DNA of 38,437 bases from positions 1 to 38,437 of the forward strand of contig JAVEBF010000055.1 of assembly GCA_051941275.1 (NCBI GenBank), in the 5' to 3' direction. The DNA is from Dirinaria sp. TL-2023a (taxonomy: Eukaryota). Of the stretch, positions 13,544 through 31,918 are shown piece by piece. The notes under the pieces are model-generated. The model had not been told where the DNA came from, ran no database searches, and saw only the letters and a list, made by a program, of their open reading frames with translations. The translations under genes and the position numbers were made by a program. The first letter of the stretch is position 1. Each line of letters starts with the position of its first letter.

Positions 13544-15434
13544 TCAACCAAGCCCAAATTCCTCTTTTCGGCGTCGTACGTGCTCAATCGCCCCTTTCGG
13601 GTCAGATTCGTCCGGCTTACCGAGTTGCCATTCGACAATCGTCTCCATAGCAGGCTTCATCCAAGGGCCCGGCTCTTCACCCAAAGCTTTGCAAAGTTCG
13701 TGGCCATTTACTAGAGGCTTCAGAGAATAAACTTCCAGTAACGAGTGGGACTCTAGAGCCAACAGCCAAGCCCTATACCCGTCTGCAATTGTAGGTTGCT
13801 CTTTGGAAATGTAAGTGAAGGCACATTTAGCACGCAGCATTTCGACTTACCCGTACCCTCGCTCTCGGATATCTGAACTAGCATGGCGTACAAAACACAA
13901 GACCGCCAGTAAGAGCCCCAGCGACGGATCGCTTTGCCATGGATTTGACGATCGACCAAGTTAAACTCTTTTTGCGCTCCAGTGGTCCGTGACTCTGCGT
14001 CTGGGGCCCCCAACCTTCGCATTTCTATAATTTCTTGCAAATATTGGACGGCATCTTCAACCATGCCCAAAACATTATTCTCAACCTTGATACCTTCTCT
14101 AGCAGAAAAGCCTGCCAGGCTTCGTGGCTTCTTGTTGGAACGCTTTTCTGACGATGGCATTGGGCTTCTGGCCCAAGGTACAAATGCGCACAGAAGCCAT
14201 GCACGGTAGAGATCCTCAGAGCCCCGTAATAGGATCCTTCTAAGACTTTCGAGATTCATTTCGGGATCTTTGCTCAGGGTTTGGCTTTGGGTTTGGCTCT
14301 GGACGAGAGAAAGTAGGAAATTGTATGCCCGGTGCCAATGTCTCGTATCGGCGATATCGGCACTTCGGGCCTCAGGATTTGTGAAGATATTATTATACAG
14401 CCCAAGCTCGTCAATGAGCCTCAAAGCCATGCAGGGGTTGACGCCTAGCAATTATCCAGTAAATTGCACATTTATGAATATAAATCACACCAACCTCTCA
14501 GCATCTTCTCAATCTCCACTCCAACCCTTTCGCGACTGATCTTCAGAGTCTCTTCGGCTTTGGTTTGTGCCTTCTTGCGGTTGGTCTTCACCGCTTTTCC
14601 CACAGGACCATCATCTTTCTCGACAAGTATTCTTCGCATGAACTCAAGCTTAATCTCCGAACAGCTCATGGCTTGAAGGTCGCCTGCATCAATAATGAAT
14701 CCAAGTCGGCTGGCGAAGCGTATGTGCCTCAAAACCCGTAATGGATCGTCTTTGAACGTTTGTAATGGCGGCAAGGGCGTTTTGATTATTTTACGTTCCA
14801 TATCTTCAAGCCCCCGACCTGTGAAGTCTTCGATTTCCAACGTATGGATGTTATAGAATAGTGCATTGACGGTAGCATCTCGCCGCAGCGCGTCTTCTAG
14901 CGCTGTGCCGAACTCCAACTTGGTGGGATTGCGACTGTCTGCAACATAAGTTTCTTTACGCAGGTTAACAAGGTCTATTTGCAAGCCAAATATCTTCACA
15001 GTAGCAGTCTCAAGATGTTTGGATTTTTCGGGATTAGCCTCAATCTTCGTTAGAGCACCTACGACACTCTTTCCTCCCTTATTGAAACCTTCGTTGGCTG
15101 TTGCGCCAGGGAGTGTTACGAAGTGCTTCAACAAAAGCCCGAACTCATATCCGCTCAAGTTATCGATGGCAACATCGATATCATCGCTTGATTTTCCTAG
15201 CAATTTGTCTCGTACCCACCCGCCGGCGAAACGTAGTGTTGGTTTTGCATGATCTGGTAACGTACCGACGTGATCAGACGCGTCGACGAGAAGCTTTCGG
15301 ATTCTGGCCTCTTGCTCCGTTAGATCGGACAAGGGGAGGGTCTTCTTCATTACTGTTCGGGACTGTTGTAGAGAAGATCGCAGCACTCGAACAAAGTAGC
15401 TGGAATGCTTTTGGAGATTTGAGAAAGGAGACAT
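13544..15434 (-). CDS. CCA1: CCA tRNA nucleotidyltransferase (class II); exons 15434-14495, 14444-13851, 13800-13544
   Basis: Motifs AGGWVRDKLLG..DIDVA, DLVNLRKETY..DSRNP, EDALRRDATVNALFYN, DDPLRVLR..RFASRL and KISRERVGVE; two 50-nt GT-AG introns. Confidence 0.92.
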
Positions 15435-16051: not shown

Positions 16052-16980
16052 ATGGCTACAAGTCAGGCTGGCGCTCTGCATGCGCCCAATCCTACGTGTG
16101 TAATCGTGTTCTTCCTCTACTTCACTTGCTGACAATCGTACAGAGTATACGTGGGTCTCGGATACCGTTCTGGCTTACAAGGCGCAATTGCACTGATGCT
16201 GCCTTTAGGTCAAGAACCTTGAAGAAAGCATTAAGGTTGACCAGATGAAGGAAGCTCTCACAGAGATCTTCTCGGAGTATGGTAATGTCATCGACCTCGT
16301 CGCCAAGAAGAACTTAAAGGCGAAAGGCCAGGCTTTTGTCGTCTTTGATGAGACCGAGGCGGCCGAGCGAGCTATCAAAGAAGTACAGGGGTTTGAGTTA
16401 TTCGAAAAACCTATGGTCCTTGATTATGCGAAGACGAAGAGTGATGCGACAGTAGAGAGGGAGGGTAACGCCGAGGAGCTGGAATCGCACAAGCGTAGAC
16501 GGTTGGCCGAAAAAGGTCCGTATCAATTTCGCGAAGTAAAGGAAGATCCTCAACAGCTGACCTTCTTCATCCGCATTAGAACGAAAACAAGCTGCCGAAG
16601 CCGCAGAGATCCAGAAGAAGCTCAAGCGCTCCGCCGCGGCCGCACCGTCAGAGGCTGCAAGGCCTGTCAAAGCCGCTCGTGGGTCCGGCCTCAAGGCTTC
16701 AAACCCTTCAGCAGGCGCCGTGATACCGGAGGAGTACCTACCACCAAACAAGATCCTCTTCGTCCAGAACTTACCGGACAACTACGATGTCGACAGCCTC
16801 ACGTCAATATTTGGCATATTCGAGGGTTTCAGGGAGGTTCGTTTGGTGCCTGGACGGACAGGGATTGCTTTTGTTGAATACGAGGCGGAGGCTGGTGCTA
16901 TAAGTGCAAAGGAACGAACAGCTGGCATGGCACTCGGAGATGAGGGGAAGATCATGAAGGTAGTCTACCAGAGGCAATGA
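16052..16980 (+). CDS. usp102: U1 snRNP protein A (U1A/Usp102, two RRMs); exons 16052-16095, 16144-16150, 16209-16515, 16580-16980
   Basis: Spliced N-terminus ..APNPTVYVKNLEE (RNP2) and KAKGQAFVVF (RNP1). C-terminal RRM PPNKILFVQNLP..EVRLVPGRTGIAFVEY is typical of the U1A/U2B'' family; the two-RRM form matches fungal U1A. Confidence 0.88.
16179..16205 (+). promoter_or_regulatory. Putative intronic U1A-binding stem-loop overlapping the branch point of U1A intron 2
   Basis: AAGGC-GCA [ATTGCACTGA] TGC-T-GCCTT: 8-bp stem with one bulge and a 10-nt loop starting with the U1A recognition heptamer AUUGCAC. Confidence 0.6.
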
Positions 16981-17200
16981 TACCCAGTGGGCACGTGGGG
17001 CTTGGCCTACCATGACCCAATGACAATGGCCTTAGATACATCAAGAGCGAATACACGCCAAGCCATGTGTCCATTGCTCTTCAAACTCTGGAAAGCTTCT
17101 AAGCCCACTAGGTAACACGCCCACACTGCTACCACGGCCTCTGGTCTTCTGATTCTCCGGGTCGTATCAACTTCAACCGTCCCTGTTATAGGCATACGCT

Positions 17201-18429
17201 TTAGAAGATGACATCCTGATCTTCCTGCTCGCCAAGCACGTCTATTGGCCCGGAATTCTCAGTGTTCTCCTTGTCGCTACCGCGCCTAGTCTTCTTCTCC
17301 TCCGCTTCTGCGTTCTCGCTATCCCGTTGCTTGTTGTTTTTGACCTACGCAAGCGAATATTAGCAGCTTTGTGGATGCCGTCAGCTCTGCAGCTTACCTT
17401 TTTTAGGCGGTAAAATTCTTCCCTATCAAGTTCATCGAGTTCTGAGTTGATGTCTGTCGATCTTCAGTTGAGTCAAAAGGCCAACAGTAAAGGCCAACCC
17501 ACATTTGATGGTGTTCTCTGTCCGCGGTATGATAACCTAGCTCACCTTAGCAAGCTAAAAGCGAACTACATATACATGTACTTACATGCTCACTATATAA
17601 GAGAAAGTGATTGAGACCGTAAGTTCGTTAAGCACCTGGGTTCGGGGCTTACATCGCATTTACTAGAAATCGGGTTATTCGAAACCATGATAAGAAATGC
17701 CGAGCGACCAATCTTACCTCTCCGATTCACAACCTTGATCACTTCGTCGAGGATAACGAATGCGGTCTGCCATAAGATCAGAAGAGGCATCAGCGCTGTC
17801 CAGTGACTGCCCACCTGTAAACTCGCAAGCTCCACAAGAGTCTCGACAGCTCGCGAGTAAGTTTCTCGACAGCGCTGAACTTGCTGCCCGCCCTTACCCA
17901 GCCCTGTCAGACCAAAATCGTTGTTTCCCTCTGTACTATAGCTCTCGAATTGTGGTAGAAATACGCCGGAGACATTCTCCTGCTTTGTCCGAACACGAAA
18001 GCGGGCACTCTTAGCTGATTCTTGAACTTGATATCCAATGTCTCCCCCCACGGCATATGTGACTTCTGCCAGTGAAAATGCCGCGATCTGCATTACCCGG
18101 CCCATCTTCCGCTTTGCTTCATCGATGCGCCGTGTGATTTCTGCAGCAGTTCAGTACTGAAAGGAAGCGGTTCAGTGGACGTGCACTACCTCGGAATCGC
18201 CTGAGCTCGAGTATTAGTAGCCGCATAGCATAGGGATTGGATATACGCACTTAGTCAAAGCTTCGCTCTTCCTCTTGAGGAGACTGTGTCCTGTCTCTGC
18301 ACCTTTGAGCTTACCCTTCATAGCTCCTAATGACTGCCGAGTTGGGAACACGGGCTCCCTGTCCTACAAATACAAATTAAGTGACGACTCATGTTTGCAG
18401 GTCATATCACCTACGCCTGCACCGGACAT
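17201..18429 (-). CDS. VMA8: V-ATPase V1 subunit D; 10 exons: 18429-18415, 18363-18251, 18200-18190, 18140-17815, 17766-17718, 17662-17653, 17592-17586, 17536-17503, 17453-17398, 17344-17201
   Basis: Spliced product [85 protein letters not shown]..DVIF*; all nine introns are GT-AG. Confidence 0.95.
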
Positions 18430-30107: not shown

Positions 30108-31918
30108 CCTCTACACTTTGTCACTGGCGTCGCTCATAGCCTTAGTCGGGCTCTCGCATGCATAGGGAGTTCGGAGACTGGTTTAGGTTTCGATGTAGAG
30201 TTGGGTGTCTACACGGTGAAGGTTGTGGGTTGAAACGGTGAAGTAGTTTGATTGCAAAATCACAGAAATAACAAGGCCCGGGCACCAAGCGATCGACCGT
30301 TGGCTGTATGGCTGCTTTTGTTGAAGATGGCGATAACGGTCTCAGGGACACATTGAGAGGGAGTTGCGAAAGGTAAGAGGATATCGTATTTGTCGTGCAG
30401 CAGCTTTACGAAAATCTGTTCGCATTATTGGAAGTATGTACGTACGCTATTACTGCTTTGGACTTTGCTTTGCTCGGCGATTCCAGTCACCCCTGCATTT
30501 AATCGCTTGGCGTTGGACCCCCTTAACCTTCCGGTACCACCACCACCCCACATGGGCACTGGGTACCTTATTGTGATATTGTGAAGCCGCTTAATTGGAG
30601 TAGCATATTACAAGCAAAATGGCTTTGGGCTTCGCTATGCACATAACACACAAAGCAGCTTGACTACTGCGACGTCCCGATGAATGTACGCTACGACTTT
30701 GTGGAAGCGTGTACTGCTATCGCCGTCATCCCATTATCCCATACAAGCTCATGGATTAGACGACCGTGTTCCTCCTTCACCATACAAATTCGTAGGCGCA
30801 CTACCACGTGAGCACCTGATGGAATTGATAATTAGCATTCAGAGTGAAATGGGGTATTCTTGGTGAGGCAGAGGATATGGTGAGGTGCTCAGAGAAGCCG
30901 TCTTAATCAAGGCCCCGTAACCGGCTATACATCTCCAGGAACAAGACGATCCAGAAAGATGCAGAACTCAAAACCGACATGACGTTCCTTCAGCACGACT
31001 GTAAACCGAACCAAAAGAGTAACTCCACAACCAATCATACCAGCTCAAACAAGCCAGTCCGGTGCGGGAGGGCGGCCTGGAGAGGTGCACTTCAGGGAAT
31101 GGATTGACTTTCTTTCATCGTAGCACGGACTTCAAGAATCATTGAACTTACTCACGACCCAAGGGATCTAGCTCAAGACCTATTGTAGAAGTCAATATAA
31201 TTCCGGCGACGATCGACAATTTATTTGAGCGCCCATGTGGAAGGAATCAGAACAATGGTAAGTTTGGTAGATGATTATCGACACAAAATTTCAGTAGCAG
31301 AACTGATAATAGAACCATTCATCATAAAGGGTGACTTGTATGGCACAACATCTGTAATCGCACAAGAAATATAACTGACCTGTACCTAGAGCTTCCACTG
31401 TGTCCGTGCTGTGGTCCCACAATATCAGTAATTATTCGGTACGGTTGAGATGTAATGGCAAGATGGTAGAGTACAACGCAATATCAGATGGTAGTGCATG
31501 TGAGTTAAAGGCTCATAGAAACGTCGCTAGAACTCTAGAGATTGATTTCTTCCTTGACTTTTTGTGGGAGGATCAGCGATGAGGATCAAGTGCAGACTCA
31601 CTCGCGCAATTGCTTCTTAAGCAAGCTTAACGAATATCTGTCGCCTTGTATTCAGCTCTTTTTATAAGCTTGCAAAGTAGAGAATGCGAAAGAGATGAGA
31701 TAGATGGAATAATTTAGGGAAAGTTCTCGAGCAATGGCACCCAAGGTACCTTACCTTACCTAAATCGAGGTATGGTAAGGTAGCACTAGCGTTACGATAC
31801 CACAGTTACCTTAGCGAGATACATGCACTTGATCTTACATACCTTAACATTATATCAGTGAAAGAACCATGTGATCACTGGACTTTATACTGCTTCCACT
31901 GGCAGCTAAGGAAAGCTG

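Follow-up and report, generated by a model that had tools for sequence, protein, structure and literature searches.

The U1A/U2B''/SNF-family gene on the forward strand of a 38,437-nucleotide contig of Dirinaria sp. (JAVEBF010000055.1; this whole stretch of DNA is called the window here) has in its second intron a hairpin whose loop begins with AUUGCAC. It raises the question whether a mimic of U1 snRNA stem-loop II, laid over a splice signal, could let the U1A protein hold back the splicing of its own pre-mRNA. U1A autoregulation is a textbook case, solely as the inhibition of polyadenylation in vertebrates. Passages of the published papers state that the ten-base loop AUUGCACUCC is the loop recognised by U1A (PMC10466895), that U1A makes contact with AUUGCAC and with the C-G pair that closes the loop (PMC2203988), and that vertebrate U1A binds AUUGCAC-type sites in its own pre-mRNA and reduces the expression of its gene (PMC9977717, PMC6884704, PMC2203988); the U1A of Arabidopsis, in a passage of PMC5829640, does not bind its own mRNA.

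The gene occupies 16052-16980 (+) and has four exons and a 252-aa product. Exon 1 (16052..16095) starts with the ATG at 16052 in the gene model, and RNA contigs place its end at 16095; intron 1 (16096..16143, 48 nt, GT..AG, with a CTGAC branch motif) is absent from the RNA contigs, and then follow a 7-nt microexon, AGTATAC (16144..16150), and intron 2 (16151..16208, 58 nt, GT..AG), which hosts the hairpin and whose limits, as given in the previous sequence-only reading, agreed with the sequence and with the RNA contigs. Exon 3 (16209..16515), placed by protein match and RNA contigs, encodes RRM1, intron 3 (16516..16579) has 64 nt, and exon 4 (16580..16980), from the gene model and RNA contigs, encodes the linker and RRM2 and includes the stop codon; all of these are on the forward strand. 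The microexon finishes a Thr codon and then encodes Val-Tyr of the RNP2 motif, and contigs of three of the four RNA runs join 16095 to 16209 through exactly AGTATAC, while the joint left by removal of intron 3 is present in contigs of all four (four runs of one sample in one study, ~95% alike). For the window gene we saw spliced RNA contigs and no retained-intron form, the contigs being uninformative on the absence or the level of such a form.

By its sequence, the gene product is a fungal U1A protein. Exon 3 matched human U1A chains (E = 2e-24) and U2B'' (2.9e-21), RNP1 GQAF is conserved, VYV falls in the microexon, and both the RRM1 similarity and the RNP1/RNP2 motifs place the protein in the U1A/U2B''/SNF family. 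The two-RRM architecture (252 aa, PF00076 and PF13893, precomputed) is present, and a database protein of 252 aa (P0001), from a metagenome-assembled genome of a Dirinaria sp. lichen fungus, is 100% identical across the 102-aa exon-3 query; the names on related proteins are U1A/U2B''/SNF, usp102 and U1 small nuclear ribonucleoprotein. Several database protein models (P0023, P0099, P0104, P0107, P0119) read through or skip the microexon/intron region (alignment A1, columns 29-50), and the 5' end of the U1A gene is often mis-annotated in protein databases.

Within intron 2, the 5' arm AAGGCGCA (16179..16186, +) pairs with the 3' arm UGC-U-GCCUU (16197..16205, +), with U16200 bulged, around the 10-nt loop AUUGCACUGA (16187..16196, +), as found in the sequence and in the fold of the intron alone. 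The stem has 8 bp with one bulge, and the U1A heptamer AUUGCAC (16187-16193, +) stands at the 5' edge of the loop; a site of the U1 stem-loop II type would have this register, this loop length and a C-G closing pair, and here the closing pair is A16186-U16197. The best branch-site match read from the sequence, ACUGAU (16192..16197, +; consensus CTRAY), with candidate branch A16196 in the loop, takes in the closing pair and the final two bases of the heptamer, and the 3' arm covers the pyrimidine tract. When intron 2 is retained, translation shows the frame shifted into a premature TGA (16220..16222, +). The pairing with its bulge, the branch motif in the loop, the covered pyrimidines, the shift to this TGA and the caveat of an A-U closing pair had all been described before from the letters of this DNA, and every sequence statement in that description is correct.

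The stability of the hairpin is marginal. It is present in the minimum free energy (MFE) fold of intron 2 alone and is not in the MFE fold of a 248-nt context, and the probability of its loop-closing pairs varies with context length from 0.04 to 0.69, whereas the canonical 5'-splice-site hairpins described below reach a pair probability of ~1.0 in every context. A constrained fold allows the helix to be extended to 14 bp (-12.7 kcal/mol) by a possible outer helix, in which GGCUUA (16172..16177, +) pairs with UAG/GUC (16206..16211, +) across the intron end, including the 3' splice site.

These features have to be weighed against coincidence, in which the heptamer arose beside the branch site out of a CAC context common to relatives and the arms are accidental and without function. 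We consider this explanation possible, on the unlikely side, and the properties of the intron bear on it in both directions. The stability of the intron 2 fold is ordinary (z = -0.73; 38 of 200 shuffles fold as well), and the heptamer alone occurs at chance level (5 in the window vs 5.86 expected; the three other forward-strand sites named earlier as chance occurrences are indeed among the five), as coincidence would have it. On the other hand, a stem this good around the fixed loop was reached by 13 of 20,000 random flank pairs and by 9 of 10,966 real window contexts (~7e-4, a statistic picked after the hairpin had been seen). With ~0.06 heptamers expected in the 929-nt pre-mRNA from the measured window rate, an exact heptamer that begins a 10-nt loop on a stem this good would arise in the pre-mRNA with a joint chance of ~4e-5, which speaks against coincidence, as does the fact that the product bound by that loop is the gene's own. 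Neither intron 1 (16096..16143) contains an AUUGCAC hairpin, nor does the gene or its 3' flank contain a further ATTGCAC, and Rfam gave no family around the window gene at E <= 10 except a chance sRNA match (E = 4).

Whether other fungi place such a hairpin in the same gene was examined in metagenome contigs, a scan of which gave 238 confirmed relatives, the best 80 being kept as L001-L080. A canonical hairpin was found in the 5' part of the U1A gene in 35 of these 80 fungal loci (best 80 of 238), all on the sense strand, and its loop is AUUGCAC followed by 3 nt, often exactly AUUGCACUCC. In many loci the 5' splice site itself forms the 5' arm of a perfect hairpin with which intron 1 opens; typically GUACGUGUC leads into the loop AUUGCACUCC, followed by GACACGUAC. 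Of the 21 5'-splice-site hairpins listed, 12 have exactly AUUGCACUCC as their loop, and many orthologue loci agree with U1 stem-loop II in every one of the ten loop bases and in the C-G closing pair. When ATTGCAC sites were counted in the 80 loci together with a 4-kb slice of the window, 21 of 31 sense-strand sites stood in a loop of 10 or 11 nt closed by 7 or more consecutive pairs, and none of 18 antisense sites had a stem longer than 4 bp. So frequent a hairpin in orthologous genes is a further point against coincidence at the window.

The stems of the family also covary. In alignment A2, 25 hairpins are lined up by their loops, with duplicates, L039, the L075 group and the window excluded. 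Pairing extends to 90.8% of its cells and both partners vary in 8 of 9 pairs, values reached by 0 of 500 shuffles; because its rows are anchored on the motif, part of this covariation signal reflects different stems around one loop and not descent. The closing pair is C-G in 23 of 23 distinct hairpins. A first covariance model, R1, was tied too closely to the 5'-splice-site stem, and with default filters it found L039 alone among 44 non-training loci and missed the L075 hairpin. A second model, R2, was built from 8 diverse hairpins and gave 36 matches when run over 275,512 bases; every one is on the sense strand and falls in the 5' region of U1A, and they comprise canonical matches in 35 of the 80 loci at 23-36 bits and a weak second site in L018; members held out of R2 training scored 26-32 bits. 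Rfam, run against one canonical hairpin locus, gave no family match. The weak second site (L018:1273-1303) is an AUUGCAC hairpin upstream of the canonical one, with a 9-nt loop, G-C closing and 16.6 bits.

A loop variant, AUUGUAC, is present in two unrelated hairpin designs (L066, L067, L069 and L075-L080), which suggests from sequence that the fungal U1A protein tolerates it. AUUGUAC is a known U1A site in PIE, the vertebrate polyadenylation-inhibition element. Within the literature passages retrieved, a U1A paper holding AUUGUAC was not found, and the one relevant passage concerns Pumilio.

The position of the hairpin differs among loci, and its relation to splice signals recurs. In most canonical hairpins the 5' splice site of intron 1 lies inside the stem. 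In the L075 group the loop is AUUGUAC plus 3 nt and the 3' arm, GGCUGAU, is itself the intron 1 branch motif; L038 has its hairpin in intron 2, with the 3' arm GCU continuing into GCUGAC; and in L042 the hairpin ends 5 nt ahead of ACUGAC. These branch-site designs (L038, L042, L075 group) recur in unrelated stems. Two related loci without an intron 1 hairpin, L012 (37-68) and L017 (1421-1452), have a short C-G-closed AUUGCAC hairpin ~70 nt upstream of the ATG, which may be a 5'-leader version of the element. In L008 (1467-1499) the 5' splice site is GCACGU instead of GUACGU, one stem pair is broken, and the intron is probably a GC-AG intron.

Evidence that the hairpin segment is really an intron comes from L013, a 100%-identical spliced form of L071 that differs by the loss of the 204-nt hairpin intron. 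All 22 of the hairpin introns examined would make the transcript unproductive if retained, 18 through an in-frame stop inside the intron and 4 through a frame shift. L009 is without intron 3 and without the neighbour-gene introns present in its relative L074, yet it keeps the hairpin intron, with TAG directly after the hairpin; it is probably an intron-retaining transcript, the alternative being an intron-poor genome, and L039 resembles it. Taken together, the sequences suggest that U1A keeps its own output down by preventing the splicing of its transcript.

As for the hosts, a well-supported clade of 20 rows includes 18 with 5'-splice-site hairpins, the other two being a contig of cDNA type in its spliced form and a contig that breaks off within the hairpin, and its members are closest to a Helotiales protein (up to 87%). 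One of these members, L026, belongs to Sordariales (92% to Staphylotrichum, 87-89% to Neurospora), and the named relatives of L038 reach no more than 65%. The window protein has Lys at the positions of human U1A Arg52 and Asn15; since L026, which has a canonical C-G-closed hairpin, also has Lys at the Arg52 position and has Arg at the Asn15 position, changes of this kind are no argument against binding. The gene arrangement extends beyond U1A: the convergent downstream gene of the window (~17200-18150, -), whose product we take to be V-ATPase subunit D, has a product resembling the U1A-neighbour protein in L009, L013 and L074, and the U1A/neighbour arrangement is conserved across distant fungi. 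Upstream, an open reading frame of 320 aa (14472-15434, -) contains motifs that we presume to be those typical of a CCA-adding tRNA nucleotidyltransferase, and elsewhere the window has a C/D-box snoRNA of the snR61/Z1/Z11 family (31244-31330, -; 56.9 bits vs a gathering score of 45).

Like the members of this family, the window hairpin belongs to the U1A gene, lies on the sense strand in a 5' intron, overlaps a splice signal and presents the exact heptamer in a loop of 10 nt; its location on the sense strand, in the 5' part of the U1A gene and at a splice signal is paralleled in L038, L042 and L075. It departs from the family in the A-U closing pair, the bulged stem, a last loop base A in place of the usual C, and its marginal stability. 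R1 left it unmatched at E <= 10, both in the whole window and in the gene alone, which is weak evidence because R1 is too tied to the 5'-splice-site stem; R2 gave it 3.3 bits, where canonical members reach 23-36 bits, and did not report it in its 9 window matches, so that neither covariance model scored it significantly. Both the low R2 score and the A-U pair, where the family has an invariant C-G, favour coincidence.

The nearest relatives sampled, L049, L050 and L053, are 90% identical to the window gene in RRM1, and their homologous intron 2 has neither the heptamer nor the stem: in the aligned segment AAAUCAC stands ahead of the branch motif and both arms are different. Like these three, L001 and L070 are without the hairpin in the aligned intron. 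The expectation that orthologues of intron 2 would share a conserved AUUGCAC loop with a covarying stem therefore fails, and the absence of the hairpin from the nearest relatives sampled, with AAAUCAC in place of the heptamer, favours coincidence. The same can be said of the two-intron-type genes, most of which have no hairpin (3 of 21 distinct sequences have a canonical one). Against coincidence, both arms and three heptamer positions differ between the window and L049 in a coordinated way. One-mismatch heptamers near the intron-2 branch site of L070 and L054 were also considered; they have no canonical stem and are compatible with chance.

A different reading is that the helix is a structural splicing element that works without U1A, for example by tuning the use of the branch site or the 3' splice site in a short intron after a 7-nt microexon. 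The microexon architecture is real, and the helix does cover the branch motif and the pyrimidine tract and, in its extended form, also the 3' splice site; but the exact U1A heptamer in the U1A register is left unexplained, and the microexon-type genes L001, L049-L058, L065 and L072 splice without any such helix, so we judge this reading improbable. It is also conceivable that U1A binds the hairpin with an outcome other than repression and nonsense-mediated decay (NMD), such as nuclear retention, a delay of splicing or definition of the microexon. The data do not discriminate between these outcomes, spliced RNA alone being seen, yet the elements occluded are core splice signals and retention is unproductive throughout the canonical introns examined, and to such an outcome we would give a very slim chance.

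We favour, by a small degree of confidence, the reading that the window hairpin is functional, with U1A binding, a block of splicing and decay of the transcript as its proposed steps. Function is favoured by the low chance estimate, the strong prior from the family and the recurrent branch-site designs, and it is disfavoured by the broken C-G rule and the lack of conservation. Under this reading of function, U1A in excess of free U1 snRNA would bind the loop through RRM1 and lock an otherwise marginal helix; BBP, U2AF and U2 would lose access to the branch sequence and the pyrimidine tract, and perhaps to the 3' splice site as well; intron 2 would stay in the transcript and the frame would run to the TGA at 16220-16222; and the retained transcript would be unproductive and probably degraded, presumably by NMD.

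Because the hairpin shares the traits of the family while it breaks the C-G rule and is unconserved, it would be either a young, relaxed, lineage-specific version or an accident, and we read it as a lineage-specific and divergent variant of a more widespread Pezizomycotina system that is apparently undescribed. In that system U1A pre-mRNA apparently has a stem-loop II mimic covering one of the splice signals of a 5' intron, in most cases the 5' splice site of intron 1. The proposal of the sequence-only reading, splicing-level feedback through a U1 stem-loop II mimic, has thus fared differently in its two parts. As a general idea, a stem-loop II mimic that would block the splicing of U1A pre-mRNA is well supported by comparative sequence, because canonical hairpins with covarying stems, all on the sense strand, were found in 35 of 80 loci; the particular hairpin in intron 2, A-U-closed, not conserved and at 3.3 bits, did not gain the same support. 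Further, with our confidence evenly divided, we propose that filamentous ascomycetes control U1A dosage via a relocatable stem-loop II mimic over core splice signals, rebuilt at the 5' splice site of intron 1, at the branch site of intron 1 or 2, or in the 5' leader, of which the window would carry a young, relaxed version (A-U closing, branch A in the loop), and that this would be a second solution distinct from PIE.

If this is true, feedback by snRNA mimicry would be much older or more recurrent than thought, U1A feedback would be able to act at the splicing step, the element would be able to move between splice signals in evolution, and there would be a second, mechanistically distinct answer to the problem that vertebrates solve with PIE. 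The hairpin system would also give annotators a reason for the frequent mis-modelling of the 5' end of the U1A gene, and it would provide a natural protein-responsive splicing switch. The idea is testable in tractable fungi, since the RRM1 of one hairpin locus shares 87-89% identity with Neurospora proteins. In the passages retrieved from the open-access literature on U1A autoregulation we found PIE-type 3'-end control alone, and the main texts of that literature, as far as retrieved, and Rfam gave no description of a splicing-level stem-loop II mimic in U1A pre-mRNA. The retrieved parts of two surveys of fungal structured RNA (PMC5640933, PMC8216456) make no mention of 'U1A' or 'snRNP', and one literature match, PMC7049704, was rejected as false, the matching string being 'u1AUG'.

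Among known systems, vertebrate PIE is alike in that a U1A site modelled on U1 stem-loop II is placed in the gene's own pre-mRNA. PIE is a 3' UTR element whose two internal loops bind two U1A molecules and which inhibits poly(A) polymerase, whereas the fungal element is a single terminal hairpin in a 5' intron at a splice signal; the window element, intronic and single, accordingly lacks the 3' UTR location, the two internal-loop sites and the fixed distance to a poly(A) signal. U1 snRNA stem-loop II itself has the same 10-nt loop beginning with AUUGCAC, but the fungal hairpin lies in a pre-mRNA intron and not in an snRNA, and in the window the loop tail is UGA and the closing pair A-U. For yeast L30/L32, Vilardell and Warner reportedly found that the protein binds a mimic of its own RNA site near a splice signal and blocks spliceosome assembly. 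A mimic of the protein's own site near a splice signal of its own transcript is likewise what we propose for U1A, with a different protein, a different RNA motif (a kink-turn-like internal loop in yeast) and a different lineage. U1-70K levels, according to PMC3798272, are controlled by U1C through unproductive splicing, so that here too the level of a U1 snRNP protein is set by unproductive splicing, as is proposed for fungal U1A; the U1C/U1-70K case is cross-regulation via alternative splice-site choice and has no snRNA-mimic hairpin. Finally, a stem that holds a 5' splice site lowers the use of that site, as a passage of PMC9977717 gives for SMN2 exon 7, and the canonical fungal hairpins have the same 5'-splice-site-sequestering geometry, to which they add what SMN2-type hairpins do not have, a cap loop of the kind that would bind the gene's own product.
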